Numbered from the stretch's first letter, positions 14,721 through 62,572 are shown. The stretch is 64,000 nt of DNA from a virus (IMGVR_UViG_3300014208_000001:1-64000), one strand, 5' to 3'. Notes: a model not told the origin generated them from the letters alone. Numbers and translations are program-made.

Positions 14721-15119
14721 TTAACGATACCCGATAGACTTACTATTACAATATGATAAAATATCGCTCGCATTATAATCGGCAAAGTCAATAACACACA
14801 GTCGCCAATCAGCATACAGCCTACGTTTAAAAGTGATATTATTACTAATAATAGCGTATAATTCATTACCGCGAAAGGTAATGTGAATATTGATACAAGA
14901 ACCATTTTCTACACTAGTAAGAGCATAAATATCACTATTTAAAACACTACGAAAATCATCAATAATAAGTGAAAATAATTCACTTACTCTCTTAATAGGA
15001 ATTAATTCGCCAGTATTATACATTATCCTCTTATGACTTCTACCAGTAACATCATATAAATACGTATCATTTTCATATTTAGCTTCATAAACTTTATTAC
15101 CTTCTATAAGGTACATCAT
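14721..15119 (-). CDS. expanded paralogue family member
   Basis: SELFSLIIDDF ... IDFADY. Confidence 0.7.
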   Translation of the reverse strand: MMYLIEGNKVYEAKYENDTYLYDVTGRSHKRIMYNTGELIPIKRVSELFSLIIDDFRSVLNSDIYALTSVENGSCINIHITFRGNELYAIISNNITFKRRLYADWRLCVIDFADYNASDILSYCNSKSIGYR

Positions 15120-15400
15120 AACGACGCTAAAATAGCTAATTTATCAGTGTGAGTTTTCAATTTCTTTTGATGATCAGCTATTAACGCGTCAAAATCATTA
15201 AGATGCCACACTTCATGTTTATAGATAGAATCATTAATGAATTTGACTTCTGCAACTAACATTTGACCTATGTGTTGATTGTTTTCTACAGACACTGATA
15301 TGATTTTGCCTGGGATATTTGGTTTAAATGGTAAGTATACGTTCTTACCAATTAATTGGTCTTTATCTTTGAATTTTGGTATTCTGACGCTAGTTGCCAT
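15116..15400 (-). CDS. hypothetical protein
   Basis: ORF with ATGA overlap. Confidence 0.6.
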   Translation of the reverse strand: MATSVRIPKFKDKDQLIGKNVYLPFKPNIPGKIISVSVENNQHIGQMLVAEVKFINDSIYKHEVWHLNDFDALIADHQKKLKTHTDKLAILASL

Positions 15401-15780
15401 AGTGTTCGTATACTCTCGTACGGGGGTGGTCGATTTCCAGCTTGGAAAGGCTAAGGTCGATTCGTTGGGTTCGCCTTGTGGGGCTTTCCTTTGTCGTTCT
15501 TTGGGTTCTGGGTTCGGGTCCGGGTTCTGGGCTGGGACTGGCTACGAGGCCGGCTTGGCGTTTTCTGAGGGCTACAAATTGGTAGTCCTAGAATTGTATC
15601 GATTATTTGTTGGTATGTGAATGAGTTCATGGTGTCTTTGAAGCGGTCTATTTCTTTTGAATCCCATTTACCTGTTTTGCTTTGTGCTACGAATTGGTCA
15701 ATTATTATTTTCTTTTTCATTTGTAATGGTAATGGTAATGTTATTATTTCTTTGTAGTTCACTTGTTTCTTCCTTGTGGT

Positions 15781-15862
15781 GATCGATCTCCTTATCGAAT
15801 ATAAAAGAAGGAACACAGCACTTTCGCACTGTGTTCCTCATCCGTGTCGAGGATCATCGATC
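15781..15862. terminator. long imperfect hairpin after ORF 15867-16199
   Basis: inner aggaacacag/ctgtgttcct; outer gatcgat/atcgatc. Confidence 0.55.
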
Positions 15863-15866
15863 GGTA

Positions 15867-16199
15867 TTAGCCGATCTGAGCACGCAGGGCGTTCTCGAGG
15901 GCCGTCAGGCGGACGAACGTAGCGGGGGCGGTCTTGCCGTCTTCCATCACGTAGTTGGCCATCACTTCACCTTCGGTGAGGACAGGAGCCTCACCATGCG
16001 GCTTCAGGTTGGCCTTGAAGCTGTAGAGGCCGGGACCGCCGTCCACAACCCAGAGGCCCTTCAGCGTGTTCTTGCTGACGCCGGCGTCTTCGGAAATCGC
16101 GAACCGTTCGGCGGTGTGCGTCACTTCCAGAACGGGCTTCGCGGCCTTGACCTTCTTCGCAGGAGCAGTCGCTGTCTCAGTCATTGTCGTCACCTTCAC
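15867..16199 (-). CDS. GC-rich hypothetical protein
   Basis: own promoter motif 16283-16310 and downstream hairpin. Confidence 0.7.
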   Translation of the reverse strand: MKVTTMTETATAPAKKVKAAKPVLEVTHTAERFAISEDAGVSKNTLKGLWVVDGGPGLYSFKANLKPHGEAPVLTEGEVMANYVMEDGKTAPATFVRLTALENALRAQIG

Positions 16200-16282
16200 T
16201 CAAAAAGAGTCCCAAAACTCACCACCAAACCCACCATAAGTCGGGCGGCAAAAACCGGGGGGATCATTCCCCCTACATCCAC

Positions 16283-16310
16283 ATGTTTCAAAAACCCCAG
16301 ACCCCGTAAA
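16283..16310 (-). promoter_or_regulatory. promoter-like motif
   Basis: TTTACG-N14-TGAAACAT. Confidence 0.65.
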
Positions 16311-16365
16311 ATCCGACCCGAGGAAGGCCAACCGAAATCAGCCAACCTCGGAGCGGACCCACCAC

Positions 16366-17580: not shown

Positions 17581-17619
17581 TTCGAAAACTCCTGAGAATC
17601 CTGTGTGAAACCCAACCCA

Positions 17620-17647: not shown

Positions 17648-17657
17648 TCAGGGGGAT

Positions 17658-19287: not shown

Positions 19288-19599
19288 TTATAAAACACGC
19301 AAACTATCAGGAGTAAGAGTCAAAAAACCGCCAATCAAAACACCCAAATCAACATAATCAATAAAATACACACGCCGCTTAAAAATACATGCACTCTGGT
19401 AATAAACACGAATCTCAAAATCAGAATAATATCCATCAATCACAACACGCAACATACTACTAGCAATCCCTTCAATCTCACCACTAATCCAAAACTCACT
19501 ATCATTATTATGGTGGTAATACACATCACCACCATGCTTATCAACAAGCTCACTGAAATCATCTAACATAATCGTATAAATCTCGCTCATCGCATACAT
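19288..19599 (-). CDS. paralogue family member, short form
   Basis: SEIYTIMLDDF ... VYFIDY. Confidence 0.7.
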   Translation of the reverse strand: MYAMSEIYTIMLDDFSELVDKHGGDVYYHHNNDSEFWISGEIEGIASSMLRVVIDGYYSDFEIRVYYQSACIFKRRVYFIDYVDLGVLIGGFLTLTPDSLRVL

Positions 19600-21023
19600 C
19601 CCTTAAATAATTTAATATTCTTGCAAACTGTAGCCATCACATCAGTCAATTTAGACGCATAACTCTCATTATGGCAATCTAAATCAAACGCACCATGCAC
19701 AAACTCATGAGCAGCCAAACTCACAAACAACCCAAAATCAACCAACGACAAACAATTTTTCATACTACGACTATTTGAATAAACCTGCTTCACAATTTTC
19801 ACAGGATTAATCAAATAAATATCGCAACCATCCTTATTCATATGAAGAGCTTCAGTCCTCTCACCATCACAATTAGTATCACTAAACACAAACCCAACCA
19901 TAAATTCACTCCTAATATTATGAATAGTATACAATGTGAGCAACATATTACTCCAAATACGGCTCACTTTGCGAGCATATGCACAAAATTGATCACTATC
20001 AGGAAGAAAATAATCAGGAATACGCATCCCAGTTTCATTATGAATAATAAACCCATAATCAAGAACATTCAATGACGTCTCACGGATCATAGTTATCATC
20101 TCATTATCACTGATATTACCCTCACTCTTATCAAGTATCATACTAACAGACAAACGTACATCGCCAACAACAACCTCACTCTCATCAACATTCAACTTAT
20201 CACCCTCAAACACCAACGTCTCAACAACATGCTCATCAAGAGCACGCTTATTAACACTCAAAGAATCAACAAACGTATCAACTTCACTAGCATACCCATA
20301 CTTCAACCCATCACGATTAGACTGCAAATACTCACCACTCGGCTCATTAAGTTCAAGCACCACACACTTATCCAAATTAACATACCGCTTAAACATCAAA
20401 ATCCCACGCATTCGCACAACCAACACATTCCTATCACTATTATTAGTATAAACAGTACCACTACGCACATCACGCCGACGAGAACCCTTCCTCATACACA
20501 CATCAAACCGCTCACCATTCACATTAAAATCACCCTTCCACTGACTATAAAACGCAAACGTCTTACAAGCATCAAGCAAAGCATCATAATGATCACCATT
20601 AATTATAATCGATGTGCTAGTACCATCATAATGCTCAGCTGATTTGATATCGTATTCTCCACCACTACCATCAACAATATACTCACCAGTCCTAATATGA
20701 TATTCTTCGTGGCAAAACAGGAGAATTTCTTTAGCTCTCCCAAATCCACCAATTGAATCGTTGAAATTCTTGCCAGTCTCACCAATTGAAAGCAATTTAT
20801 CAACAAGAATATCCTTCGTCATCGGATATCCATTATTAGCAAACGTGAGAAAAGTATTACCATTAACCAAATCGATCGTCACATCAATTTTAGTTGATGA
20901 AGCGTCGATCGAATTCTGAGCGAATTCACGAATAATAGCAAAATGCCAATCACGATAATCGCGAAGCACATTCTTGAAAAACGACGGACCGATTTTAACA
21001 CTAGCCACAGGACATATCCTCAA
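19587..21023 (-). CDS. GHKL (Hsp90/MutL-type) ATPase with C-terminal HExxH motif
   Basis: REFAQNSIDA, NNGYPM, GGFGRAK, DGT; C-terminal AHEFVH. Confidence 0.85.
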   Translation of the reverse strand: MRICPVASVKIGPSFFKNVLRDYRDWHFAIIREFAQNSIDASSTKIDVTIDLVNGNTFLTFANNGYPMTKDILVDKLLSIGETGKNFNDSIGGFGRAKEILLFCHEEYHIRTGEYIVDGSGGEYDIKSAEHYDGTSTSIIINGDHYDALLDACKTFAFYSQWKGDFNVNGERFDVCMRKGSRRRDVRSGTVYTNNSDRNVLVVRMRGILMFKRYVNLDKCVVLELNEPSGEYLQSNRDGLKYGYASEVDTFVDSLSVNKRALDEHVVETLVFEGDKLNVDESEVVVGDVRLSVSMILDKSEGNISDNEMITMIRETSLNVLDYGFIIHNETGMRIPDYFLPDSDQFCAYARKVSRIWSNMLLTLYTIHNIRSEFMVGFVFSDTNCDGERTEALHMNKDGCDIYLINPVKIVKQVYSNSRSMKNCLSLVDFGLFVSLAAHEFVHGAFDLDCHNESYASKLTDVMATVCKNIKLFKGCMR

Positions 21024-21026
21024 ATA

Positions 21027-21407
21027 TTACCACTTCACCACAACCAAAAATCGACCAGCCTTACCAGATATCAAGCATCGATTCGGAACCGCCACATTAC
21101 GCAGAATAGTCAAAATATAATCTCTATTCTTACAATTATATCGCTTAAAAAATGTTGCCAAAAGTTTAAGTTTTTCAATTTTAACAATATACCCAAGACT
21201 TTCACACTGCTTGGTAAAATTATCAATTTCATCACTTTTCGCAAACGTGAAAAATGCCGTCCTACACCAACTCTGTGCTTGGCTATAAACTTGACTCGAA
21301 AACGAATCAGAAAAGCATTGCGGAATCACATCATGAACTCCACAAATTGTACACCCCCTCTTATCAGCCTTATTCGTAATCTCTCTCGCTTCCGCCGCTG
21401 TGATCAT
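21027..21407 (-). CDS. hypothetical protein
   Basis: AAGGA RBS; promoter 21436-21463. Confidence 0.6.
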   Translation of the reverse strand: MITAAEAREITNKADKRGCTICGVHDVIPQCFSDSFSSQVYSQAQSWCRTAFFTFAKSDEIDNFTKQCESLGYIVKIEKLKLLATFFKRYNCKNRDYILTILRNVAVPNRCLISGKAGRFLVVVKW

Positions 21408-21435
21408 TTATCAATCCTTAAAGTAAGTCACACAC

Positions 21436-21463
21436 CTATTTCAATAACCAAAGGTTAGGTAAA
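21436..21463 (-). promoter_or_regulatory. conserved phage promoter-like motif
   Basis: TTTACC-N14-TGAAATAG. Confidence 0.75.
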
Positions 21464-21775
21464 AATGGGAATATCATGGATCGAATACTTATGCTTATTA
21501 TTCATAATTAACTTATCAGCAAAATTAAAAATCATAGAAATCATTACTTCATCAGAATAATCTACTAAATTTATTTCATCAATGACAATTGGTAATCCAC
21601 TCCCTTCAGTGCTCCGGATGATAATTCTATTATCATAAATATGAATTAACGCTATTATAGCACCATCAATATCATATTTATATTTAATAAATATAATAGA
21701 ATCTGACACTTTCCTAATATCATAATTATGATTATCATTAATTAACTCATAAATAATATCAATAATATAGTTCAT
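21455..21775 (-). CDS. paralogue family member, short form
   Basis: IIYELIND ... INLVDY. Confidence 0.6.
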   Translation of the reverse strand: MNYIIDIIYELINDNHNYDIRKVSDSIIFIKYKYDIDGAIIALIHIYDNRIIIRSTEGSGLPIVIDEINLVDYSDEVMISMIFNFADKLIMNNKHKYSIHDIPIFT

Positions 21776-22158
21776 ATTACTTCCAATGCTTTTCGTATAC
21801 GTATATCTGAGTATTCATTTAATTGTATTATTTCGTGACTTTCTGTTTTATTACTGAATGATATTATTGATAAATCATTATCAAGAACAATAACTGTGTG
21901 ACATCTTCTATTTAAAGTAACAGTCAACGCCCCACCACGCGCATCGTTATATGAACATCTAACTTTAACTTTTGGACATGTAAATCGCCGTGTAATACTT
22001 AATATATCGGTTAAAACAATATTGCTTAGATCATTTAATGGTATTTTGTAGCGTCCTGTGGTGACGATATCCCCTGACAGATTTGCGAAACTATACATAC
22101 GTTGGTTATCGACTAAATAATATACTGTAGATGTGCCATCGTGATAGTACGTGTTCAT
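21772..22158 (-). CDS. paralogue family member
   Basis: MNTYY...LNDLSNIVLTDI...IQLNEY. Confidence 0.7.
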   Translation of the reverse strand: MNTYYHDGTSTVYYLVDNQRMYSFANLSGDIVTTGRYKIPLNDLSNIVLTDILSITRRFTCPKVKVRCSYNDARGGALTVTLNRRCHTVIVLDNDLSIISFSNKTESHEIIQLNEYSDIRIRKALEVI

Positions 22159-22460
22159 ACGTGATTTCCAATTTGGAAAAGTTTAGCCGCATCAGGGAAT
22201 GATGTTACAGCGTCTTGAATCCATGTATCGGTCAATTCAGCGTACGTAGACAATCTGTAATGTATATCCATACCGACTGGTATTGAGAATATAGCATTCG
22301 TGTTCGTTAGTATAATTGTGAATATGTTTCTACGTAAATGTATTATATCAATTGATAATTTGTTGTCTGATAAAAACGATATTTTACCACATTTTAAATT
22401 GTTATTTTCTTTACAATATTGAAAAATATCGTTGAACAGTACTTGGTGTATCTCATTCAT
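22155..22460 (-). CDS. paralogue family member, short form
   Basis: NEIHQVLFNDI; aligns end to end with neighbour 22453-22761. Confidence 0.7.
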   Translation of the reverse strand: MNEIHQVLFNDIFQYCKENNNLKCGKISFLSDNKLSIDIIHLRRNIFTIILTNTNAIFSIPVGMDIHYRLSTYAELTDTWIQDAVTSFPDAAKLFQIGNHV

Positions 22461-22761
22461 GAATATGCCTCATCACATGTGGAAATTGTGTTATTGTTTC
22501 TTGCATCCATGTATTTGATACTTCTGAATAATTAATCGATTTATATAACATGTTGCCGTCTTTTGGGATCGAAAACATAACATGAGTATCTGTTAAAACA
22601 ATTATAAATAAAAATTGAGTCAAATAATGAACTTCTAATGAAACCATATGGCCTAGATCAGTGATATAACCATATTTAAGATGATATTTTTCACAATATT
22701 CTTTGATATCATTCAGTAGTATTGCCCATATATCTTTCATAATATAATATTTCAGCGACAT
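22453..22761 (-). CDS. paralogue family member, short form
   Basis: KDIWAILLNDI...INYSE. Confidence 0.7.
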   Translation of the reverse strand: MSLKYYIMKDIWAILLNDIKEYCEKYHLKYGYITDLGHMVSLEVHYLTQFLFIIVLTDTHVMFSIPKDGNMLYKSINYSEVSNTWMQETITQFPHVMRHIHE

Positions 22762-22812: not shown

Positions 22813-22815
22813 TAG

Positions 22816-22889
22816 TGCGCCCGGTCGGACTCGAACCGACGACCAAAGAATTATGAGTTCTCTGCTCTAACCAACTGAGCTACAGGCGC
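22816..22889 (-). tRNA. tRNA with CAU anticodon (probably Ile2, possibly elongator Met)
   Basis: cloverleaf; loop CU-CAU-AA; G1-C72 paired, so not initiator. Confidence 0.9.
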
Positions 22890-23717: not shown

Positions 23718-24134
23718 TCAGTGTGAACTCGAAGCTGGCAAAGAACTATTGCCCGGAAAGCCAGCCCGGTTAACTGAACCAAGAAACCCAAACAACCAAT
23801 CAAACCCATCATAATCACAATACTTAACTTTAAAATAATTACCATAAGAATACACAGTCACATTATCAGAAAGCAACGTCAACGTAAACCAATACTCATG
23901 CCTTATCCGGCATCCGATCATCAATCGGCCATCGCTTATCAATTTACAATCGCTAACATGTACACCCAATTTCTTAATATCATTCAACAAAACATTAAAA
24001 ACATCACCAACATAACGCAATTCATCAACCCACTCTGGTTGAAACTCGACTTTAACATCATTAAAATCAATAATATTATACTTATCAATTTGAACTATAA
24101 CACTATATCGGCCAGACCAATAATATTTAATCAT
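23718..24134 (-). CDS. paralogue family member
   Basis: MIKYY...GDVFNVLLNDI...VKYCDYDGF. Confidence 0.72.
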   Translation of the reverse strand: MIKYYWSGRYSVIVQIDKYNIIDFNDVKVEFQPEWVDELRYVGDVFNVLLNDIKKLGVHVSDCKLISDGRLMIGCRIRHEYWFTLTLLSDNVTVYSYGNYFKVKYCDYDGFDWLFGFLGSVNRAGFPGNSSLPASSSH

Positions 24135-24502
24135 GATAACTCCTTAAAAATATCGTTTAACCACACTATGATATTATTTGTATTATACTCAACAAGTGAT
24201 ATATGTATAACTTTAGCATCATGTAATTTACTATCGCAGACACTACCATTTGGACGTGCACGACTCACATATTGATAGATCAAATGATTCGCTCTAGCAT
24301 ACGCCGCTTCCGACGCAGAATATCCTATTATATCCTTATCGCAAACAACAATACAAACATACTTATAAGTGATAACAACATTTATATTACGTTTATAGTT
24401 ATAATTACTTAATAGTATGCTCTCGTCATTCAAGTGTTCCAAATCAAAAGTTATCATACTTTTATTAATATCGTCTATAATAAGTGAAAATACTTCATTC
24501 AT
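24131..24502 (-). CDS. paralogue family member, short form
   Basis: MNEVFSLIIDDI...ISLVEY; AGGAG RBS. Confidence 0.7.
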   Translation of the reverse strand: MNEVFSLIIDDINKSMITFDLEHLNDESILLSNYNYKRNINVVITYKYVCIVVCDKDIIGYSASEAAYARANHLIYQYVSRARPNGSVCDSKLHDAKVIHISLVEYNTNNIIVWLNDIFKELS

Positions 24503-24586
24503 ACAAGCACTCCTATTTTGCGATACGGAAGGAGCCAAATGCACTTTCGCACATTTGGCTCCTTCACCACCCACCCCTACTCACCA

Positions 24587-25981
24587 CTACTCATTGATAT
24601 CCAACCGCACCACATGCCCCCAAGTCGGCTCACTCGTATCACGCACAGTAATACACGTGATAAAAGGAAAACTACACGGCTCATGCCAATTGCAATATCC
24701 ATCAGTCAGCATAATCTGACAATCATGAACCTTGCCATTGTCAATCAACCACTGCACAGGAGCAACCATATCAGTGCCCCCACGCCCATTCACCTTGAAA
24801 TTCTTCCACGCACCACGACGATACAACCCATAACCCTGAAACGCATGATCCCACTGCAGAATGTAAACTTTCGCCCTCGCACTAATCATATCAATCTCAG
24901 CAAAAAACTGCTGCAACTCCTTACCACCAACAGACCCAGAAGTATCCACAATCACATTCACAGTACTCGCAGCATGATGACTCACACCCGGCATACCAAA
25001 TGACTCATCACCCTCCAAGCGACGATTCACCCGATTATGAGTCTTCCGACTATTACCAACATGCCGACCAAGATACTGCCGAAGAATCGAACGCCACCGA
25101 ACAATCGGCTTACCCAACTTCTTCAACAACTCACTAATATGACCAGGTACATTCCCCTGACTCTTCTCAACAGCATCACTCACCATATCCTTCACACGCT
25201 GACGAGCCTCGTCAGGACTAGCATCACTCTGATCCCAAATCGAATGATCATCCAAACTCTTCCCACCATACTTATCATGGATAGGACACCCACCACCGCC
25301 ACCATCCTTCTTATTCTTCCCCTTCCCCTTACCCTTCCCATCCTGACCTTCATCGCCCTGATCACCCTGGCCCTTGCCAGAATTACCTTTATCATCATCC
25401 TCACCACCGCCGCCACTACCCTCACCATTGCACTTACACGTGCAACGCTGAGCTTTCATATCCTTAGTAATCTCATCATAATACTCCTCAGCACTCAACC
25501 GATCATTAAGATGCGGAGGACACCAAACAATATCACTCTTGAACGGAATAACCGGCTTATTACCAGAATCAGTCAACCCAATCTTCGGATTGTCACGCTT
25601 ACCATTCACAGCCATATCACAAGCAATATTAAACAACTTCGGATCACGAGTAGTGCCACGAATACAATGCAAACGGACAAGATGCTCAATCTCGTGCTGG
25701 ATGATAGCAACAAGCTCCTTCACCGTCATCTTCGAAACGAAAGGAGGATAATACAAACATTGCACACGAAGATCATTGAGGATACGAACCCCCATAGTTT
25801 TGCTATCTTCATCCTTAATCCAATCCATATTGGATGGGATCCACTCGGTGAGCATGCACATGTGACCATAAAATGGCTGCTCATTAACAAGCACACATCG
25901 TGCTCGAGTGAGTGAATCAACGACCTCCGCTGAAGTCCGATGAATTACCTGCCGATCAGCATCATTCGTAGCTACTGTCAT
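24587..25981 (-). CDS. DUF2201-type metallopeptidase-like/VWA domain protein
   Basis: HEIEH, NIACDMAVN, Gly/Asp linker, MIDAS DTSGS, GGTD, LTDG. Confidence 0.9.
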   Translation of the reverse strand: MTVATNDADRQVIHRTSAEVVDSLTRARCVLVNEQPFYGHMCMLTEWIPSNMDWIKDEDSKTMGVRILNDLRVQCLYYPPFVSKMTVKELVAIIQHEIEHLVRLHCIRGTTRDPKLFNIACDMAVNGKRDNPKIGLTDSGNKPVIPFKSDIVWCPPHLNDRLSAEEYYDEITKDMKAQRCTCKCNGEGSGGGGEDDDKGNSGKGQGDQGDEGQDGKGKGKGKNKKDGGGGGCPIHDKYGGKSLDDHSIWDQSDASPDEARQRVKDMVSDAVEKSQGNVPGHISELLKKLGKPIVRWRSILRQYLGRHVGNSRKTHNRVNRRLEGDESFGMPGVSHHAASTVNVIVDTSGSVGGKELQQFFAEIDMISARAKVYILQWDHAFQGYGLYRRGAWKNFKVNGRGGTDMVAPVQWLIDNGKVHDCQIMLTDGYCNWHEPCSFPFITCITVRDTSEPTWGHVVRLDINE

Positions 25982-26020
25982 TTTGAATCCTGCGATTAAG
26001 GGTGGGTGGTTGACTTAAAT

Positions 26021-26048
26021 CTATTGCCCGAAGCTAACTTTAGGTAAA
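26021..26048 (-). promoter_or_regulatory. promoter-like motif
   Basis: TTTACC-N14-GGCAATAG. Confidence 0.68.
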
Positions 26049-26132
26049 ATAAAACTCCCCCTATCATACTCGCCACGGCAACGGCATGAATACGACAGGG
26101 GGAGCCACACAGGACCGACCAACATCAAACCG

Positions 26133-27497
26133 CTAATTGATCTCGCGAGCACTCACAGACTGATTGAACACAATCTGCAACGTAGGACGCTCCGCAACCC
26201 ACTCCAAGAAACCCTTGGAAGCCCCACTGTCACGCCGAAGTTTCACCACACGAGCAGCCAACGCCGGATTCATCGCAATCGCCAACTTGTGCTGATCAGG
26301 AGCATTCGACGACTTCACCCCCTGCACCAACTGGCGAATGAACGCAATCGCCAAATCGTTATCGTTGCCAGAACTCCGCTTATTCACCAGAACTTCAGCG
26401 AAATCCAACGCAACCTTCGCGTGCTTCTCGTCATCCACCTTGCCAGTCAAGTAACTGCTGAGACCCCACATGAGACCAGCCATCTGCGACCGGCTCAACT
26501 CACGCAACTTCTTATCCCACTGCTTGACACCATCACGCATCAAATCAGTGACCTTCACCGGACAATCGTAATTGAGGTAGGCCGACGCCACATCAGAACC
26601 GAGCAGCCCAGCCAACACCAAACGCATGGCATCATCAGGGTTGCACACCTTCTGGATAGCGGCACGAGCCCCATTCTCCATCGCGATCTTGGCACGGACA
26701 GCAGAATCCCACGAACGCCGAGACGGTTGGATGACCGTATCGTTCTTCGCGTTGTTGTTACCGTCGAGGTACTTCAGATCGGACGAAGTGAATTCGATAG
26801 CAGCGGACGCATCCAAACCGTATCGCTTACTCATGAACTGAGTCCACTCGGCGAGAGTGGTTTCGCCGGCACTGAGCGTCATGTGGCAGAAGCGATCGAG
26901 GAGGGCGGCGTCGTTAAAGCCGTTGGTGATGTATCCCTCGTTGAAATTGCCCGCCGCACACACAGCCCATCCTTCGGGGAGTGCGTATCGACCGACTTTG
27001 CGGTCGAGCACCAGTTGGAAGATGGCTTGCAGCACGTCATCGGCACCGCGATTCACTTCATCGAGGAAGAGAATTCCGTGTTCGTGGCGGGGCTGCAGTT
27101 CGAGGAAGCACGCCGAGATTTTCGTGATGTGTCGCGGGGGGAGTTTCGCGGCGATACTGGTCCAGTCGATTTCGCCGGGTTTAGAATCCTTGGGGAGGAA
27201 TTCCTTGCACCGTTCAATCACCAGCTCTTCCACTTCCATGTCGGTGAGATCGCCGATTGGCATTTCAGCGGGAGGGCAGTAGTGCGTACGGCCATCTTCG
27301 CCGCGAGTCGGGAGGCCACGAATATCGACAGCTTCCAGTTGCGAGCACCGGAGATCGACGAATCCCATTCGGGATTGTTCGCACAGTTGCTTGATCAGAC
27401 TGGATTTGCCCAGTCCGTGGACACCCCAAATGAAGGGGGTGAGTTGGGCGTGCTTGCATAGCATCACCGCACCCTGAATCTCAGAAATCCGAGCCAT
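26133..27497 (-). CDS. MoxR-like AAA+ ATPase
   Basis: Walker A GVHGLGKS, Walker B LFLDEVNR, AAGN, ALLDRF, PSRRSW; adjacent to VWA gene. Confidence 0.92.
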   Translation of the reverse strand: MARISEIQGAVMLCKHAQLTPFIWGVHGLGKSSLIKQLCEQSRMGFVDLRCSQLEAVDIRGLPTRGEDGRTHYCPPAEMPIGDLTDMEVEELVIERCKEFLPKDSKPGEIDWTSIAAKLPPRHITKISACFLELQPRHEHGILFLDEVNRGADDVLQAIFQLVLDRKVGRYALPEGWAVCAAGNFNEGYITNGFNDAALLDRFCHMTLSAGETTLAEWTQFMSKRYGLDASAAIEFTSSDLKYLDGNNNAKNDTVIQPSRRSWDSAVRAKIAMENGARAAIQKVCNPDDAMRLVLAGLLGSDVASAYLNYDCPVKVTDLMRDGVKQWDKKLRELSRSQMAGLMWGLSSYLTGKVDDEKHAKVALDFAEVLVNKRSSGNDNDLAIAFIRQLVQGVKSSNAPDQHKLAIAMNPALAARVVKLRRDSGASKGFLEWVAERPTLQIVFNQSVSAREIN

Positions 27498-28727: not shown

Positions 28728-28728
28728 T

Positions 28729-29136: not shown

Positions 29137-29190
29137 AATATCACCTCCAAAACCTATTACAAAACTAACCCCTAAAGTAAACATTAACCC

Positions 29191-33670: not shown

Positions 33671-33673
33671 TTG

Positions 33674-39005: not shown

Positions 39006-39010
39006 ATTAT

Positions 39011-41384: not shown

Positions 41385-41390
41385 GTGACT

Positions 41391-47424: not shown

Positions 47425-47433
47425 ACGCTAAGC

Positions 47434-48256: not shown

Positions 48257-48257
48257 T

Positions 48258-49003: not shown

Positions 49004-49012
49004 AGAGGTATT

Positions 49013-50063: not shown

Positions 50064-50433
50064 TTTGCATCCCAAATAATGTGTATAATGAATATTTTGT
50101 GTATTCAGTATATCGTATTCCTTTGCCTTTTACTATTACGCAATCATGGTCAATTCCTATCTTATAGAATCTCATTCTTGGCGGATTTTTAATTATACGA
50201 TGTGTAGCAAATGATAACGTGACAAATCCATTGTTATATTCATAACAAGAAAAATCGTATGCACCAAACACATCTATTATGTCGTCTATGATTACACATG
50301 CTATTTCTGATAATGCTGTTTTGCTATTAATATATCTAACTGGGTCCGACGTATTAGCTCTTAGATTGTTATCATCAAATACCCAATAGTATGTGCTTCC
50401 GTCCGATCTATGTTCATTGCTAAAATAGTACAT
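50056..50433 (-). CDS. paralogue family member
   Basis: MYY...LSEIACVIIDDI...IRYTEY. Confidence 0.72.
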   Translation of the reverse strand: MYYFSNEHRSDGSTYYWVFDDNNLRANTSDPVRYINSKTALSEIACVIIDDIIDVFGAYDFSCYEYNNGFVTLSFATHRIIKNPPRMRFYKIGIDHDCVIVKGKGIRYTEYTKYSLYTLFGMQNV

Positions 50434-50722
50434 CACATGTCTTTCTAAGATTTTTAATTTGCGTGTCGTATTCAGAAAATTGTACTGTACCAATTCCTGG
50501 TATTAATAATGATTCATCAAAAATCAAAATATTATGGGATACACCATGTATGTCACGTATTGTTATTTTATAAAAGCCAACCCATTTCATTGATATAATA
50601 TTCAATTTAGCATCTTCTATATCATTTAATATTATCGTTACTATTTCTGGTATTTCTATACCATATGTACGACCTGGGATCACTTCATCTATTAGCGCGC
50701 CGATTCGTCTATATTGTTTCAT
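50420..50722 (-). CDS. paralogue family member
   Basis: MKQY...IPEIVTIILNDI...VQFSEY. Confidence 0.72.
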   Translation of the reverse strand: MKQYRRIGALIDEVIPGRTYGIEIPEIVTIILNDIEDAKLNIISMKWVGFYKITIRDIHGVSHNILIFDESLLIPGIGTVQFSEYDTQIKNLRKTCDVLF

Positions 50723-51309
50723 AAGTACTCCATAATGTGAGTATATTCTGTAAATAAAACTTTTAAATATTCATGTTTTTCGTACGATGACATAATATTC
50801 CTAGTCCACCGTAATATTTTAATATGGTCATTATTTATATCTATTACATAAAGTTCATTTGGATTTGCGGTGTGAATTAAACAAGACCATACTACATCAT
50901 AATTCATGCATGGCCTACAAAGCGAATCTACTAAAATCACCGCGTTATTATAAATATCATTTACAATAACCAACAATATATCAGATTGTATTATATCTGG
51001 GGTATCATCTTTGTAATAACCTTCTACTTTATTTAGTTCGCTGAATGGGTGAATACATCCATTTTCGACGTATCCTAATGAAGTCCTATCGTACCGTGCA
51101 ATAGTGTAATATGATCCGTGGTATTTAGGCGTGATATTAACTATAAGGTAAGAGTTTTGGTATTGTGCACTTGGGGATACAAAAAATGATCTTAGAAACA
51201 GATTATGTATTCGTGCTAATATCTTATATTTTGTGTAATACTTACGAATTAAATATAATGATTCTTTATACTTATCTATTTCAAACGATGCCCACATATT
51301 AGTCTCCAA
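50719..51309 (-). CDS. paralogue family member with N-terminal extension
   Basis: SDILLVIVNDI...VLFTEY. Confidence 0.65.
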   Translation of the reverse strand: METNMWASFEIDKYKESLYLIRKYYTKYKILARIHNLFLRSFFVSPSAQYQNSYLIVNITPKYHGSYYTIARYDRTSLGYVENGCIHPFSELNKVEGYYKDDTPDIIQSDILLVIVNDIYNNAVILVDSLCRPCMNYDVVWSCLIHTANPNELYVIDINNDHIKILRWTRNIMSSYEKHEYLKVLFTEYTHIMEYL

Positions 51310-51335
51310 TTTTTATTGCAAGCATTTAAAACGTG

Positions 51336-51686
51336 TTAATTATCGAATATTAAGAAAGTATTTCTAATAAATTTTATAAATCCTTTTTTTGAATATTCAG
51401 ATAAGTTATAAACTTTGGCGGATATGTCTTGTCTAAACGGGCCAGTGACAAAATCAGAAGTAACCTTATCATTATTTATTGTTATATATAAATGATATGA
51501 GATATTTGAGTATTTAAGTTCGCATATAGCGCTATTATTATAATAGTATATCATATCTGTTTGTTTTTCAGTTAGTATATCATTTAATAATACTATTATC
51601 ATTTCTGATAATGGTGTATCAGCTGCATTTTGAATCATATATAAATTTTGTTTATGTTTTATTATTGATGAATAATGGGTGATCAT
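51336..51686 (-). CDS. paralogue family member
   Basis: LSEMIIVLLNDI...YNLSEY. Confidence 0.72.
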   Translation of the reverse strand: MITHYSSIIKHKQNLYMIQNAADTPLSEMIIVLLNDILTEKQTDMIYYYNNSAICELKYSNISYHLYITINNDKVTSDFVTGPFRQDISAKVYNLSEYSKKGFIKFIRNTFLIFDN

Positions 51687-51937
51687 TTAACTTTATCTGA
51701 TTCATTATAAATTGCGCCTTCTGATTCATGGCTTTCTGATACTGTAAAGCCTATCTCAGAAGCGTATTTGACAAGTTCACCGTACGTGTCGACTTTGATA
51801 CCGATTTTATTGGCTCGAGATTTCATAATATCTATAACTTCGTGATCAAAAGCGAAATCATCTAAAGTGCCTGTTATTTTGAAAATTTTACCATCTTTAT
51901 TGACATATAATTTAGGATAATATGCTACAATTTTCAT
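51683..51937 (-). CDS. hypothetical protein
   Basis: GGAGG RBS. Confidence 0.62.
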   Translation of the reverse strand: MKIVAYYPKLYVNKDGKIFKITGTLDDFAFDHEVIDIMKSRANKIGIKVDTYGELVKYASEIGFTVSESHESEGAIYNESDKVK

Positions 51938-51946
51938 TTTTGCCTC

Positions 51947-52888
51947 CTAAATGTCTGAATGGTCATCGTAATATCTTTTGAGAATCATCATGTCAATTGT
52001 GGTAAGTCTATCACCACTAATATCTTTTTTAGCAAAAACAGTATTGTAAAATTTGACAGAATGCCCCTCAGTATGACTTAAAAAATACATATTGAAATCA
52101 AAATCAACCACAATGTAATACTTGTAATTATGATAATAGCATTCAAATATGATACCAGCATCATCACCAACATCATTATCTCTAAAAACATTATTATTTC
52201 TAATTGAAACGTATTCAAAATTAGCTATACGTGTCATATGGATTTTACATTCATCATAATAATTATTATCAAAATAATCCCACACGACCTTATTAGCATT
52301 AGCTGTTGTATGCTTTTTGATTTCGTCAGCAGAGCATCCTTGATGCGATTTGGTATCGATTACATATTTAATAAATTCGTCCAATGTCAAACCATTTTTC
52401 GAGAATTTAATAAATGCTTTGCCATTTATATCAAGAACTGAAACATTACACGATATATTATAAATATTAAGATTAGATTGATGCACAGTATATTCTCTAT
52501 TTATTTTAAATTTAATGCGCAAACCTTTCTCAGCATCAAAATAATAACTACCTTTAAAATCATACCCCGCATCAGACAATGCTTTTCTAACAGTATTATA
52601 ATATGTATTACGCGATACAAAATGTTGAGATTTAATTAATTCTATGACGTTGGTGCATCTGTATACGTTGCATTTATCAATAGTCAACATTTGGCTTTCA
52701 GTATTATACGTGATATTTTGATCTGGCATTACATACACATATGGCCCGTATGCTTTTCTAAAACCATTCTCCATTAATTCTCGGCCTAACATGATATCAC
52801 GATAATATACTCTTAATTTGCGTTGATAATGATATAATATTATCACTGTTAATACAGAAAACCAAATTGTAAAGCCGATTAGGTACAT
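51947..52888 (-). CDS. hypothetical protein with N-terminal TM helix
   Basis: 313 aa; hydrophobic first ~18 residues. Confidence 0.7.
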   Translation of the reverse strand: MYLIGFTIWFSVLTVIILYHYQRKLRVYYRDIMLGRELMENGFRKAYGPYVYVMPDQNITYNTESQMLTIDKCNVYRCTNVIELIKSQHFVSRNTYYNTVRKALSDAGYDFKGSYYFDAEKGLRIKFKINREYTVHQSNLNIYNISCNVSVLDINGKAFIKFSKNGLTLDEFIKYVIDTKSHQGCSADEIKKHTTANANKVVWDYFDNNYYDECKIHMTRIANFEYVSIRNNNVFRDNDVGDDAGIIFECYYHNYKYYIVVDFDFNMYFLSHTEGHSVKFYNTVFAKKDISGDRLTTIDMMILKRYYDDHSDI

Positions 52889-53316
52889 AATAACTTCCCA
52901 ATGATTGTTTTAATAGTGTCATATGAATATGTGTGCAAAGGTATTTTACCGCACATATCAAAACACTCATCTATTTCTTGCTCCGTGAAACCGTTTAATA
53001 AATTTTCAGATTGTACATACGAAACAATATTAATATCTAAACATGATTGATCAATCTCAATAACAAAGATTATCTTAACAGATTTAATATGTATTGATAT
53101 ATTATTATCATCATTATCATTAGTTATGAAACATTCGTCGGCATCATGTACTATACACAAGATAAATATGTCATTTACGATAATTTGGAATATTTCGCTG
53201 AGCCCATCACTCGCCATATCATCTGGGCCATTAACTATTTTGCCATAACTATATCTAGGATAGATAGCATTATCACTATATGATGGATTATATGATCTAA
53301 ATTTTCTAAATATCAT
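52879..53316 (-). CDS. paralogue family member
   Basis: LSEIFQIIVNDI...IPLHTY. Confidence 0.72.
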   Translation of the reverse strand: MIFRKFRSYNPSYSDNAIYPRYSYGKIVNGPDDMASDGLSEIFQIIVNDIFILCIVHDADECFITNDNDDNNISIHIKSVKIIFVIEIDQSCLDINIVSYVQSENLLNGFTEQEIDECFDMCGKIPLHTYSYDTIKTIIGKLLCT

Positions 53317-57154: not shown

Positions 57155-57194
57155 TTTTGTGTATTTGAGTAAATAAACTCAAAGGAACACAAAA
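57155..57194 (+). promoter_or_regulatory. RBS-sequestering hairpin with TAAATA at the loop
   Basis: ttttgtgt-a-tttgagt / actcaaa-gga-acacaaaa. Confidence 0.6.
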
Positions 57195-58756
57195 TGGCGA
57201 TATCGAATGATATAATTGAAACTATTATTAATTTATATTCACAAAACATATCAATATCAACAATAAGCAAGAAGATTAATATTAGTAAATATCACATCAC
57301 TAAAATATTAAAATCAGCTAATATAGAGATTAAAAAATGTAATTATCAAAAATTAAATATTGATATTAATGCGATCAATAAACTATATTATGAAGACAAA
57401 AAATCAACATATGATATAGCAAAATTATATGGTTGTAGCGATGAAACGATACGTAAATTAGTAGTTGTACGACCTATAGCTGAAAGGAACATATTATCTG
57501 AAGAGTCAATCGCTAAAATAGCTATTAAATCTAAATTATTATGGCAAAATGAAGAATATATTAAAAAAGTGAAAAATGGAACATCAACTAAAGAGTATAA
57601 AGAAAAATTACGAAATGATGGTATCAAGAATTATGACATGTCTTTAGGTAAGTGGATGAAATCAGCAGAGAGTAAATTAATTATATCAACATTAGCCAAA
57701 AAAAACTGGAATAATCCAGAATATCGTGCCAAACAAGAGGTGTGGTACTCTGAAAGAATAACACGTATAAGTGCCGCCGCTAAAGAAGCATTAAATGATC
57801 CAATACGTAGAGAAAAATGGATAAACAAACTACGAAAATCATCGGCAGCAAATAGATTATCCAATGGATGGGTTAGTACACCACAAAAACAATTATATTA
57901 TATACTTACAGTTTCAGATATCACATTTAATGAGGAAGGACCTGACACAATTATAAGTCCTTTTTATACAGTCGATTGTGTAATTCCCAAACAACAAAAA
58001 ATGCATAGACCTTTAATAATAGAAGTGCAAGGCGAATATTGGCATAATCTGCCGCATGTAATTATTAAAGATAAACAAAAAGAAACATATATCCGTAACC
58101 ATACTGATTATGATTTATTAAAATTGGACGAATTAGAATTATCGTCATTTAATCAAATACAAGGAAAATTGAATGAATATGGCTTAATTATAACTAGTAT
58201 AAATTGTGCAACTAGTGATTTAATAATAGAACGAATCTCAGAAGAAGACGCTAAAATGTTTTATTCAATTTTTCATTATACAGGCACAATCAGGAAAGGC
58301 GCTATCGCTTTCGGAGCATATTATAATAAAGAACTTATATGTGCTATAAGTTATACTTATCCGATGAGAATCGAAACCGCTCAAAAATTAAATTGTCAAA
58401 TACATGAGATTATGGAGATATCAAGATTGGCTAGAAAAACAAATGTAATATGCAAAAATTTAATTAGTTTTATGATAGGAAATACACGTAAAAAATTACA
58501 AAATATTGTTAAATTGGTTAGTTTTTCCGATTCAACATATGGCCATACTGGTAAAGTGTATGCAGCTTCTGGATTTAAATTTGATGGTTTGACTAGTGAT
58601 GATTATCATTATATTTCATTATATGGTAAATATCATAAGAAAACAATATGGGATCGATCCAAACGAATGAAAATGACAGAAGATGAATATGCTGAAAAAC
58701 ATGGACTAATTAAAATAAAAACATCACCGAAATCACGATGGGTTTATGATATGTGA
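57194..58756 (+). CDS. HTH-repeat / Vsr-DUF559-like nuclease / Mom-like GNAT fusion (homing-endonuclease-like)
   Basis: two HTH repeats; YTVD...IIEVQGEYWH; HYTG...EISRL...VSFSD..YGHTGKVYAASGF. Confidence 0.75.
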   Translation: MAISNDIIETIINLYSQNISISTISKKINISKYHITKILKSANIEIKKCNYQKLNIDINAINKLYYEDKKSTYDIAKLYGCSDETIRKLVVVRPIAERNILSEESIAKIAIKSKLLWQNEEYIKKVKNGTSTKEYKEKLRNDGIKNYDMSLGKWMKSAESKLIISTLAKKNWNNPEYRAKQEVWYSERITRISAAAKEALNDPIRREKWINKLRKSSAANRLSNGWVSTPQKQLYYILTVSDITFNEEGPDTIISPFYTVDCVIPKQQKMHRPLIIEVQGEYWHNLPHVIIKDKQKETYIRNHTDYDLLKLDELELSSFNQIQGKLNEYGLIITSINCATSDLIIERISEEDAKMFYSIFHYTGTIRKGAIAFGAYYNKELICAISYTYPMRIETAQKLNCQIHEIMEISRLARKTNVICKNLISFMIGNTRKKLQNIVKLVSFSDSTYGHTGKVYAASGFKFDGLTSDDYHYISLYGKYHKKTIWDRSKRMKMTEDEYAEKHGLIKIKTSPKSRWVYDM

Positions 58757-60277: not shown

Positions 60278-60286
60278 ATTTTTATT

Positions 60287-60314
60287 TTTACATTATTACG
60301 CCGCATTGTAAAAT
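60287..60314 (+). promoter_or_regulatory. promoter-like motif
   Basis: TTTACA-N14-TGTAAAAT. Confidence 0.55.
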
Positions 60315-60347
60315 AAAAAATGTGAGGTAGAACACATTTAGGAAATT

Positions 60348-60860
60348 ATGATGAAACACTTAACACTATTGTTTATATTAATACCTGCGCCACTTATGGC
60401 TGAATCATTTGATGCTATAAAATCGAAAGAATATTTGCAATCTATTCAATATAAGTTAACTAGACTACGAGTTCTTCTCAAAGAAGATAAACGTGGCAGA
60501 GCTTTACGATATGAAATGACAGCTCGGGCTATAGATTCATTACCGATGCTTAAAGTTGATGATGAATTATTAACGTTCGGTATCCATGTCAGTAGTTCAT
60601 TGAGATATCAAGCTGATGTAGAACGTCAATCGTTAGTTCATGCTGGTGTGCGTAGGGCGCAAACACGATATGGTTATTATAATGGTTATTATTTTACCCC
60701 AAATTTTAGTACGTATTATATGAATCCAAGAGCTATAAATGCAGAAGAAAATGAAAAATCCGCTATCGTTAGATTTTCAAATTGGCGGGATATAGAAGAT
60801 AAAATGGTAGAAATCAGACGATCATTGACTCAAAAGTATAATATTGAATTTATTGAATAA
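60348..60860 (+). CDS. secreted hypothetical protein
   Basis: signal peptide MKHLTLLFILIPAPLMA; Y/G-rich segment; C-terminal IRRSLTQKYNIEF. Confidence 0.72.
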   Translation: MMKHLTLLFILIPAPLMAESFDAIKSKEYLQSIQYKLTRLRVLLKEDKRGRALRYEMTARAIDSLPMLKVDDELLTFGIHVSSSLRYQADVERQSLVHAGVRRAQTRYGYYNGYYFTPNFSTYYMNPRAINAEENEKSAIVRFSNWRDIEDKMVEIRRSLTQKYNIEFIE

Positions 60861-61296
60861 TATCCTTAATTGTAGTAAATTCAGTATAAGAGCATTCTTT
60901 ATGTATTGTGAATACTGAATCGGTGCCTTCTGGTTTGACCAATAATTTAATCGATGATTCATCAGCTTGCAAATATTTCATATCAATCAAATAATTATGT
61001 GATACCAATATTGTTACAATATTAGAATTCATATTATAAAATGCGAAACCACATCGTAAATGATACGCTTCTGTTAGTATGATATTATATATATCATTTT
61101 CGATCATTTTGAATTCTACAGAGTGTTCAAAATCCTGCGTGCGTGGTATAGGTTTACGATAAACTTCATCAAGAACTGAATATGGCCTATGATAGATACC
61201 AAATGGTATGTGTTTACGGCCTTCAAATGTATAAATATCCCTATCGTGGATAGTTATATCAATTGGTGGTTTAGGGATGCTGTAATAAAATTTCAT
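60850..61296 (-). CDS. paralogue family member
   Basis: MKFYY...NDIYNIILTEA...CSYTEF. Confidence 0.72.
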   Translation of the reverse strand: MKFYYSIPKPPIDITIHDRDIYTFEGRKHIPFGIYHRPYSVLDEVYRKPIPRTQDFEHSVEFKMIENDIYNIILTEAYHLRCGFAFYNMNSNIVTILVSHNYLIDMKYLQADESSIKLLVKPEGTDSVFTIHKECSYTEFTTIKDIIQ

Positions 61297-61808
61297 CACG
61301 TCCAGCCGTTGGCGGCAATCTCCGCCCATATAATTTTCTCAAAATAATCGGAATCGTAATCTACCAATTTAACACTGCGTACTTTTACTCCGATAGTTAT
61401 AGTAAATGCACTACGATCACCGTCGCTATAATGTGTTTGAATCGGAAATGGATAAGTATAATCCGATTCTATTCTTGCTGGATAATAAATAGTAATATAT
61501 GGTATTGTGTGATTGGCACTACAAATTGCGACATCAAATGAATTTTTGGTACTTGATGTTGCTTTATCAAAAAGTAATTTATATTTTCTAACTGCTGAAT
61601 AAATATCATTAAGTAATACATTTTCTATATCGCCAAATGGGACTCTATAAAATGTTTCAAATCCAGCAAATGCAAAAGATCGTAATCTCACAAATCCTTT
61701 ACTATTGACGCCAATATTGGTATAAATTAAAATTTCGCTTTGATATACGTAAAACTTATCGATTGTATTATCGGCTTGTTCTATTTTGACATAATTGGTT
61801 ATAGCCAT
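61296..61808 (-). CDS. paralogue family member
   Basis: GDIENVLLNDI...VKLVDY. Confidence 0.7.
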   Translation of the reverse strand: MAITNYVKIEQADNTIDKFYVYQSEILIYTNIGVNSKGFVRLRSFAFAGFETFYRVPFGDIENVLLNDIYSAVRKYKLLFDKATSSTKNSFDVAICSANHTIPYITIYYPARIESDYTYPFPIQTHYSDGDRSAFTITIGVKVRSVKLVDYDSDYFEKIIWAEIAANGWT

Positions 61809-62134
61809 TTATATTTATAGTGGTGTTTTACACCACTCCTTTCAATAATACCATCATTCACCAAGCCACGTAAAGCTTTGTTTATTGAATCTCTATTATA
61901 TTGGCTTTGTATGATACTTGTATCATTACTAATTGAATTAACCATATCACGTAATTTAAAACCATCATTGACACGATCACGATGGTTTACTATTATTTGT
62001 TTCCATGTTCTTTTTAATTGACAAGTATTATGTTGTTGTTGATTAAGTATGACTAATTTGATCAATTCGGCAGCTTCGTTGATTTGGCAATTTATTATTA
62101 TACCTGGTAGATGTGAAAATTTAACTGTTGCCAT
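61799..62134 (-). CDS. putative winged-helix protein
   Basis: SINKALRGLVNDGIIERSG...YKW. Confidence 0.55.
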   Translation of the reverse strand: MATVKFSHLPGIIINCQINEAAELIKLVILNQQQHNTCQLKRTWKQIIVNHRDRVNDGFKLRDMVNSISNDTSIIQSQYNRDSINKALRGLVNDGIIERSGVKHHYKYKWL

Positions 62135-62572
62135 TTATTCCTCCGTATCAAACATTGTTAACCAGTTTTTGCAAAAATACGAACCATCGTAATCATAAAA
62201 AGAGATAGAAATTTCTTTAAATAACCGTTGATCTATATGGGCATCACAATTAATAAACAATATTTTAACTATCGATGGGTATGCGGCATTTCTTGTAATA
62301 ATATGAACAACACGTCTCTGATTAATATCATTAACTTCTACAGAAACATCATTATCAATACAAATCGCATTATTAATTTTCAAATCAAATTTTGTGATTG
62401 TGTCATATATATCATTTAATAATATTGTATTAAAATCATTCAGTTTGCTAATACTAGCTATTTCAATATTAATATTTTTGTTGTTAGTTAATAATTTTGG
62501 TGATTGTCCATTGATCACTATCGAATAATTTATTGTGCTAAAGTGTGATTGTGCTATATAAAAATCTAGCAT
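62135..62572 (-). CDS. paralogue family member
   Basis: LNDFNTILLNDI...ISFYDYDG. Confidence 0.72.
   Translation of the reverse strand: MLDFYIAQSHFSTINYSIVINGQSPKLLTNNKNINIEIASISKLNDFNTILLNDIYDTITKFDLKINNAICIDNDVSVEVNDINQRRVVHIITRNAAYPSIVKILFINCDAHIDQRLFKEISISFYDYDGSYFCKNWLTMFDTEE

Follow-up and report, generated by a model that had tools for sequence, protein, structure and literature searches.

A family of small proteins at the locus

The DNA examined in this study, a window of 64,000 nucleotides (IMGVR_UViG_3300014208_000001:1-64000), comprises bases 1-64000 of a 355,825-bp record. This record is a single-contig virus, and the ends of its contig overlap by 123 bp. Between positions 14721 and 62572 of the window lies a long series of small open reading frames (ORFs), most of which encode divergent members of one protein family, each about 90-150 amino acids (aa) in length. 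A first-pass annotation had claimed 60-64 copies in the window, and we find approximately 61-62. That the family and the selected state of its copies are real is near certain. The explanation we favor overall, and regard as probable, is that these genes belong to a lineage-specific multigene family of about 91-100 paralogues, approximately 60 of them in the window, carried by an uncultured groundwater jumbo myophage. This assessment concerns the explanation as a whole, and the function of the proteins is graded separately, and more cautiously, below.

A seed hidden Markov model (HMM) was made from the ten ORFs at 44.9-48.7 kb (44893-48656). This model directly matches 19 further ORFs at E<1e-3, and a set of 4,100 shuffled or reversed decoys gave no match, not even at E<=1. 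An iterated search with decoys in the database converges at 94 ORFs, again with no decoy recruited. When the family HMM was applied to the rest of the genome, as the annotation had proposed, 91 ORFs were found in 355.8 kb at E<=1e-3, 57 of them in the window. An HMM restricted to the C-terminal domain adds 37399-37857 (7.6e-8), 29571-29966 (4.5e-4), 32186-32506, 41711-42127, and a remnant at 33674-33886, and the best decoy in this search has E=0.11. It is the addition of these matches that brings the window total to approximately 61-62. The family makes up about 17% of called ORFs and 36 kb, or 10.1%, of the genome, and it occupies 46% of the interval from 14721 to 62572. Outside the window, a second cluster of members is located at genome positions 136-160 kb, and one member at 226 kb lies directly beside the tail sheath gene.

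The members are arranged in blocks of both orientations, and every one of the seven blocks and the outliers that had been named beforehand contains members. The ATGA, GTGA, or otherwise short overlaps described for them are also present, in that 25 of the 48 same-strand junctions between members are 4-nucleotide overlaps and most of the others are short overlaps. Open frames of at least 90 codons are far more numerous than expected in the region from 44.9 to 53.3 kb, where 22 are seen versus 0.9 after local shuffling of the sequence. The G+T-only stretch at 33.9-37.4 kb has 19 long frames, and intact frames carry little weight there because chance gives approximately 5.5.

The first members in the window are all on the minus strand. 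They include outlying members of 132 aa at 14721-15119 (HMM E of 3.7e-11) and 103 aa at 19288-19599 (2.9e-9), and a variant copy of the latter in contig L009 has 87% aa identity and an indel. Three adjacent members (21772-22158, 22155-22460, and 22453-22761; 8e-14 to 2e-10) form a patch at 21772-22761 that, unlike its neighbors, has normal base composition and third-position skew near zero. Two more adjacent members lie at 23718-24574 (9.8e-18 and 6.9e-7). The block at 27584-30651 contains members at 27584-27979, 27976-28371, 28335-28772, and 29191-29574, together with 29571-29966, which is matched in its C-terminal domain only. Here the coding (minus) strand is G+T-rich, with a third-position GC skew on the plus strand of -0.45 to -0.88. 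The ORF at 28729-29184 is not a member, and those at 29963-30295 and 30283-30651 have a similar starting helix motif yet fall below the HMM threshold. On the plus strand, 31418-32506 holds two members (2e-10 and 5.7e-14) and the weak C-domain-only match at 32186-32506 (0.005). Three of these ORFs (29191-29574, 29571-29966, and 32186-32506) begin at the conserved helix and are without the N-terminal part.

The central blocks follow a 70-aa remnant on the minus strand (33674-33886; C-domain HMM E of 0.0028), which carries two copies of a terminal PLK-D/Y-Y-TNI motif and sits where a strand asymmetry described below changes sign. A tandem sub-array of nine plus-strand members (33931-37068; 3e-16 to 8e-7) consists almost entirely of G and T. 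It has a period of 338-386 nucleotides, GTGA or ATGA overlaps, and near-identical junctions, and corresponds to repeat family D1/D4. The ten minus-strand members at 37399-41348 (4e-17 to 3e-10, with 37399-37857 matched by the C-domain HMM at 7.6e-8) owe their abundance of T, I, N, H, P, and Q residues to a coding strand that is A+C-rich there. Seven plus-strand members, of which 41711-42127 is weak, were identified at 41385-43922 with the family and C-domain HMMs. The block at 44893-49778, also on the plus strand, has eleven members (ten at 44893-48656 plus 49428-49778; 3e-17 to 1e-7) and a normal AT-rich composition, and its ORF at 48653-49003 is not a member. Six minus-strand members (49773-50075, 50056-50493, 50420-50722, 50719-51309, 51336-51686, and 52879-53316; 9e-13 to 1e-4) form the block at 49773-53316, which is interrupted by two unrelated genes; 51947-52888 has no Pfam match. 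Finally, three outlying minus-strand members lie at 60850-61329, 61296-61808, and 62135-62572 (1.8e-10, 1.6e-8, and 2.8e-11; 60850-62572 overall).

The genome has an overall GC content of approximately 32%. We take the phage to be a jumbo myophage because the genome has PHROG matches to large terminase (180-185 kb), tail sheath (227-230 kb), and ribonucleotide reductase. The tail sheath protein has only distant relatives (<=40% identity), such as those of Bacillus phages HSE3 and SP-15. The large terminase ORF (genome 180466-184833; 7467-11834 in contig L002) is 1,455 aa long, and its terminase matches occur in separated pieces accompanied by endonuclease-like matches, which suggests inserted elements such as inteins. 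A blastn search with 53.4-58.8 kb against 50,697 phage records gave no match, and a ligase-like neighboring gene has no match in the viral contigs searched. Eight tRNA genes are present in the genome, and seven of them (Gln, Thr, Leu, Lys, Arg, Met, and Ser) are in the window, at 7039-9212, 22815-22889, and 44168-44249 (tRNA-Ser). The DNA is present in groundwater metagenomes of two studies and partly in one soil metagenome, and the sequencing runs listed as containing it include no RNA run. Of the words sampled from it, 99% were found in contigs of two groundwater runs from these two studies, either of which may be the source sample.

Conserved segments and predicted fold

The three best-conserved segments of the family alignment are those that the annotation had singled out as shared motifs, namely an aromatic start, an amphipathic helix, and a terminal motif. 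Alignment positions 4 and 5 are Y or F in 75 and 79 of 94 rows, respectively. The helix motif reads L45-N/S-D/E-L-Y-x-I-I-L-N/D-D/E55, with position 55 acidic in 91/94 rows. In the terminal motif, I107-x-L-x-D/E111-Y/F112, position 111 is acidic in 84/94 rows and position 112 is aromatic in 92/94. Conservation is otherwise concentrated in G83 and in alternating hydrophobic strand positions that make up the hydrophobic core, in addition to D/E47, N/D54, D/E55, and D/E111-Y112. The strand positions between the conserved ones are almost free to vary, and the mean column identity is 13%.

An AlphaFold2 model of the member at 47879-48256, computed with 43 window members as the alignment, has a predicted local distance difference test (pLDDT) value of 94 and a predicted template modeling (pTM) score of 0.86. 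The order of elements in this model is five short strands (residues 3-44), a helix (47-59), five strands (63-108), and a final helix (115-123). We are confident that the predicted protein has two domains, a small N-terminal beta domain starting with M-K-Y-Y and a C-terminal alpha-beta5-alpha two-layer sandwich. A second model, based only on 25 members from a distant relative phage, has a pLDDT of 90 and includes the same unit of helix, five strands, and helix, with a shorter N-terminal part. Furthermore, hhalign comparison of the alignments of the two arrays gives 97.4% probability (E of 1e-11). The proposal of one family on a fixed scaffold is therefore upheld, in that two independent alignments yield confident models with the same C-terminal topology. 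A homodimer prediction scored 0.22, below the mark of 0.42, which is evidence neither way.

The annotation recognized no known family, and our searches agree, with no match found in Pfam, PHROG, NCBIfam, PADLOC, PDB, or BFVD. For Pfam, PHROG, NCBIfam, and PADLOC, nothing beyond single chance-level matches was obtained; those to the PADLOC and NCBIfam models have E>=0.002. The best match of the profile to PDB sequences has an E of 0.059. Foldseek returned nothing at E<=0.001 from PDB or BFVD, and its top rows are polo-box domains with E values of 0.013-0.4, template modeling (TM) scores of 0.2-0.23, and root mean square deviations (rmsd) of 14-16 A. A search of the ESM Atlas by shape reached TM scores of at most 0.48 by query, and a search by features gave no usable match, the Atlas's own model of the protein being poor.

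An exhaustive structural aligner placed an uncharacterized archaeal protein first (3cxj_A; Z of 8.4, rmsd 2.1, 76 residues). Below 3cxj is a mixed list at Z 5-7.5 that includes the Med17 C-domain, TtfA, frataxin, UEV/RWD domains, and type III secretion chaperones; the list for the second model also includes an Rhs immunity protein (TriTu) and AcrIIA11. Frataxin/CyaY proteins have the same order of elements as the C-terminal domain (weak matches at Z 6.7, rmsd 3.1, and 74 residues for 4hs5_A, and at Z 4.9). D/E47, N/D54, and D/E55 are on helix 1 of the model, the helix that carries an acidic ridge in frataxin/CyaY, but the structural match is only at the weak level just given, and none of the 43 members scanned against Pfam matches the frataxin/CyaY family at E<=0.1. 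Class I type III secretion chaperones (SycH/SicP/CesT-like) account for approximately 10 of the top 50 rows (Z 5.3-6.7), in which only residues 46-125 are aligned. These matches, including that to SycH (1ttw_A, Z 6.7), are not above unrelated rows. The UEV domain of Tsg101 matches the C-terminal domain at Z 5.2-5.7. None of these alpha-beta(4-5)-alpha sandwiches (frataxin, UEV/RWD/UBC, chaperones, Med17, 3cxj) stands out or has a sequence relationship to the family, and the extra N-terminal beta domain is absent from them. Therefore, we describe the predicted C-terminal domain as a common alpha-beta5-alpha sandwich and claim no fold-family membership, because Z values in this range are usual for unmatched models.

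Selection, divergence, and strand asymmetry

Selection on the copies was assessed with strain-variant contigs (L012, L009, L013, L014, and L007; 98-99.7% DNA identity), which provide 17 gene comparisons. Together these contain 54 synonymous and 56 nonsynonymous differences, whereas neutrality predicts a ratio of about 1:4 (binomial p of 9e-12). The pooled ratio of nonsynonymous to synonymous substitution rates (dN/dS) is 0.25 for the family, compared to 0.24 for nonfamily genes of the same regions, and no variant copy in these comparisons has a stop codon. The copies are thus functional genes under purifying selection, which agrees with the earlier proposal that they are selected.

Sequence similarity between members is low. 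Only 105 of 4,095 pairs are detected by BLASTP at E<1e-3, or 46 with composition-based statistics, and the most similar pair is 45% identical. The most similar pairs (30-45% identity) lie in the G+T-rich sub-array, which is the youngest part. Among detectably similar pairs, 54% are within 2 kb of one another, versus 5% expected. Because such pairs are mostly neighbors, the sequences indicate that the family has grown by local tandem duplication followed by deep divergence. The annotation had invoked gene-accordion duplication, which we take to mean recent, near-identical, reversible amplification. Tandem duplication is borne out by the clustering of similar pairs, whereas a recent accordion is not, given that the best pair is only 45% identical. 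Likewise, the near-identical tandem copies of a gene accordion of the poxvirus K3L type are absent here. The pattern is better described as old tandem duplication with expansion or homogenization within each lineage.

Approximately 16 kb could be compared between strains at 98-99% identity, and one 291-bp in-frame deletion was seen, with no gain or loss of a whole unit. The deletion is in L012, a contig from another run, which is without 291 bp (30323-30613) of 30283-30651 and retains a remnant of about 25 codons. The divergence of L012 is patchy, with 3-4% at 21000-22500, 29500-30300, and 31500-32500 versus 0-1% elsewhere. The most divergent part (3.6-4.4% at 21.5-22.5 kb) coincides with the patch of normal composition at 21.8-22.8 kb inside a skewed zone. 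These divergent patches suggest recent recombinational import; short-sided joints (21-23 nucleotides on one side) in the X1 and X4 contigs were not used as evidence of recombination. A diversity-generating retroelement was also considered and rejected, in that no reverse transcriptase (PF00078) was matched in the genome at E<=0.01.

The family has also expanded in a distant phage from another groundwater sample, in which a single 19-kb tandem array (contig L010) holds at least 22 members and contig L006 holds 7. These members are closer to one another than to any member in the window. A profile search of 1.84 billion representative proteins gave 50 matches, 40 of them from this genome. Nine of the other ten are near-identical or close strain variants or belong to one distant phage. 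The last, an 804-aa protein (P0047), is probably spurious and was treated as such, since it matches only via a repeated D-Y-T-x-x-T-x-V-T-F motif. Word-based homologue searches with both alignments recovered only proteins of contigs already identified. On these searches, the family appears restricted to one phage lineage.

Very high divergence, as the annotation noted, is present, yet part of it reflects regional mutation bias and not diversifying selection. Third codon positions in the region show an extreme asymmetry between the strands, which is independent of gene orientation and whose sign flips within about 400 bp near 33.5 kb (33300-33700). From 33.67 to 44.1 kb, the plus strand is G+T-rich, with a third-position GC skew of +1.00 that falls to about +0.3 and then drops sharply to zero at the tRNA-Ser and NADAR genes (44.1 kb). 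From about 14 to 32 kb and at genome positions 341.4-350.0 kb, the minus strand is G+T-rich instead (skew down to -0.91), with interruptions by patches of normal composition. A high-GC, unskewed island extends from 350.03 kb to about 14 kb, and the mirror-image zone ends sharply at 350.03 kb. The whole asymmetric zone spans approximately 58 kb; it starts at about 341 kb, crosses the contig ends, and reaches 44 kb. Within the minus-rich part, adjacent DUF2201 metallopeptidase/VWA-like and AAA ATPase genes (24587-27497) have a GC content at third codon positions of 0.45-0.66, far above that of the surrounding family genes.

The effect on the proteins is large. In the nine genes at 33.9-37.1 kb, third positions contain 1-7% A and 0-1% C, whereas A still accounts for 11-28% at positions 1 and 2. 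The next ten genes, on the minus strand, are A+C-rich. Proteins of the G+T group are 15% G and 18% V, and those of the A+C group are 15% I and 10% T. Nevertheless, D/E55 and D/E111, whose codons need A, are each kept in 9/9 of the G+T-rich copies, and changes at core positions there are mostly from I to V. This is the pattern that should be left by mutation bias acting against purifying selection. Members at approximately 19-44 kb have been recoded, and much of the high divergence there is of regional, mutational origin. Because the bias also affects nonfamily genes in the zone (19587-21023, 24587-25981, and 28729-29184), it is not directed at the family. Nor is it a sequencing artifact, because short-read-style contigs from several runs and the independent L012, which also has the G+T-rich start of the array, carry the same sequence.

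The asymmetry resembles the outcome of A>G together with C>T change on a single strand. It is conceivable, albeit improbable, that regional hypermutation speeds diversification of the repertoire as a phage counterpart of somatic hypermutation, perhaps driven by DNA that becomes single-stranded at an origin, in an R-loop, or near a genome end. The differences between strains are symmetric transitions, and the direction of substitution could be set only with an outgroup. The phage encodes an adenosine-deaminase-family protein (PF00962, E of 6e-34) and a dCMP-deaminase-like protein (PF00383, E of 1e-7) at genome 81791-82648 and 90058-90345, respectively (contigs L016 and L015), and in the distant relative an A_deaminase gene (L010 6045-7025) is situated just upstream of the array. 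Any connection of these deaminases to the A>G and C>T bias is speculative. Read depth also changes along the zone. In two runs, the contig covering 7970-33751 has depths of 63.2 and 61.6, versus 38.6 and 34.7 for the contig from 35983 (about 1.6-1.8x), and G+T-rich pieces at 34-36 kb have a depth of about 25x. This step could reflect GC-dependent coverage or a terminal repeat that has been collapsed and whose end lies near 33.75 kb.

Possible functions and relation to other multigene families

Several genes near the arrays belong to families that take part in phage-host conflict. A NADAR-domain protein that is not a family member (44265-44906, plus strand; PF08719, E of 4e-28) is encoded between two arrays, just after the tRNA-Ser gene. 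The same arm includes genes for a helix-turn-helix and Mom-family protein (57194-58756, plus strand; PF25680, E of 6.6e-21) and a circularly permuted YpsA (cpYpsA) SLOG-family protein (62566-63051, minus strand; PF12694, E of 6.6e-34), and a NAMPT gene (genome 141815-143254) lies inside the second cluster. This context lends some support to an accessory or counter-defense arm. Furthermore, the weak structural neighbors are mostly protein-binding modules (UEV/RWD, type III chaperones, TriTu immunity protein, AcrIIA11, and Med17 C-domain).

On the basis of this gene context and the general look of the predicted fold, we tentatively suggest that the family constitutes a set of small protein-binding modules used in host takeover or counter-defense, similar to the anti-defense or host-binding role originally envisaged. 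The proteins would be cytoplasmic, a location read off the sequences and not from signal-peptide prediction, and the variable sheet face of each member might bind a different host or rival target. The conserved acidic and aromatic residues would have a common structural or partner-binding role, and the set would act early in infection.

Several observations weigh against this suggestion or limit what it can draw on. All structural matches have Z values of 4-8.4, which are usual for unmatched models according to the aligner, and the binding module is therefore only an impression. A catalytic or metal site common to the members would explain the conserved acidic residues equally well. A scan for sigma-70-type promoters at 37-54.5 kb found 148 versus 131.5 expected (standard deviation of 12), and because this is not above chance, early expression is unsupported; a terminator scan of the same region was likewise not above shuffled expectation. 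The dN/dS of 0.25 averages a small number of differences and is silent on diversifying selection at particular surfaces. Finally, because the gene set comes from a simple longest-ORF call, there may be errors in start codons and in some overlaps.

Deeply diverged small paralogues in long arrays are a typical feature of the immunity loci of polymorphic toxin systems, and the paralogues might instead be immunity or antidote proteins that each neutralize a different toxin domain. The toxins could be, for example, effectors deployed by competing phages or by abortive-infection or polymorphic-toxin systems of the host. The adjoining conflict-related genes fit such a poly-immunity-type locus, as does the match to TriTu bound to an Rhs toxin (7zhm_D; Z 5.9, rmsd 3.3, 75 residues of an 87-residue chain). 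However, this match is within the noise of the aligner, no member matches a Pfam immunity family, and no toxin-like gene was found among the neighbors scanned. We consider this alternative unlikely, and in practice it is a sub-case of counter-defense. Jumbo phages can also have paralogous internal or virion proteins, which raises the possibility of injected internal head proteins, decoration proteins, or chaperone-like assembly factors for the very large virion. The weak resemblance of the C-terminal domain to type III secretion chaperones (Z 6-6.7) points in this direction, and M-K-Y-Y could in principle be a targeting signal, but it is predicted to form a core beta-strand and not a free peptide. 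Although the member at 226 kb adjoins the sheath gene, most members are in the accessory arm, far from tail sheath and terminase. To our knowledge, a set of approximately a hundred different structural paralogues would be without precedent, and we judge a structural or assembly role to be quite unlikely.

A large set of specific transcription factors, directed at DNA or RNA polymerase, would have a parallel in phage G, for whose zinc ribbon, present in approximately 35 copies, Iyer et al. (2021, PMC7824862) propose DNA binding or a function as specific transcription factors. Among the weak structural neighbors is the C-terminal domain of T4 MotA (5jlt_A at Z 6.4, rmsd 2.6, and 74 residues; 6k4y_M at Z 6.7). 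We nevertheless regard this role as very unlikely, in that the structural matches are at noise level, the Pfam scan of the members detected no DNA-binding motif, and the family is mildly acidic, with a median isoelectric point (pI) of 5.66 and a median net charge of -3. The pI values range from about 4.1 to 9.4, and the class of DNA mimics was dropped since the family is not uniformly acidic. Lastly, the motifs could be by-products of AT-rich composition, as the annotation itself cautioned, or of skewed composition, or the copies could be decaying neutral duplicates. Chance frames do arise in the G+T-only stretch (5.5 expected versus 19 seen), and composition inflates BLASTP similarity, from 46 corrected pairs to 105. 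Against this, the members form one profile cluster that recruits no decoys, and the same profile finds them in another phage as well as in zones of normal, G+T-rich, and A+C-rich composition. The two concordant confident models, the dN/dS of 0.25 with no stops, and the difference in bias between codon positions also contradict this explanation, which we find hardly credible.

Multigene families are found near the genome ends of large eukaryotic DNA viruses, including the MGF110/360/505 families of African swine fever virus (ASFV) and the ankyrin and kelch families of poxviruses. The family described here is similar to these in having dozens of diverged paralogues in an accessory arm and a presumed role in host interaction, and possibly in a copy content that differs between strains. 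It differs in that those viruses infect eukaryotes and the folds are unrelated, and in that host-range or immune-evasion roles have been shown by experiment for some ASFV and poxvirus members, whereas the role here is a presumed one. Closer parallels come from jumbo phages, whose tandem paralogue arrays were published in 2017 (PMC5646251) and for which the zinc ribbon of Bacillus phage G was called "unprecedented" by Iyer et al. (PMC7824862). As in these cases, one small family has been multiplied in a giant genome, largely in tandem, and the expansion is attributed to tandem duplication. However, the present family has no zinc ribbon and no Pfam or PHROG match, and it has about three times as many copies. 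These copies are very diverged, whereas the published ones are "very similar", and unlike them they occupy several clusters in both orientations and are partly recoded by extreme strand bias. The family is one more, very large case of a jumbo-phage lineage-specific multigene family, although the sequence family itself is undescribed.

Giant phages carry hundreds of genes without an assigned function, and large private families make up much of that share. The copy number reported here is approximately threefold that of the largest published single-family phage expansions we found (about 35 in phage G and more than 30 in 121Q). The predicted fold, the purifying selection, and the second, independently expanded array together make the family a well-defined experimental target. 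In addition, the G+T-only array is a natural experiment that reveals which residues of the scaffold are not given up under extreme mutation pressure.

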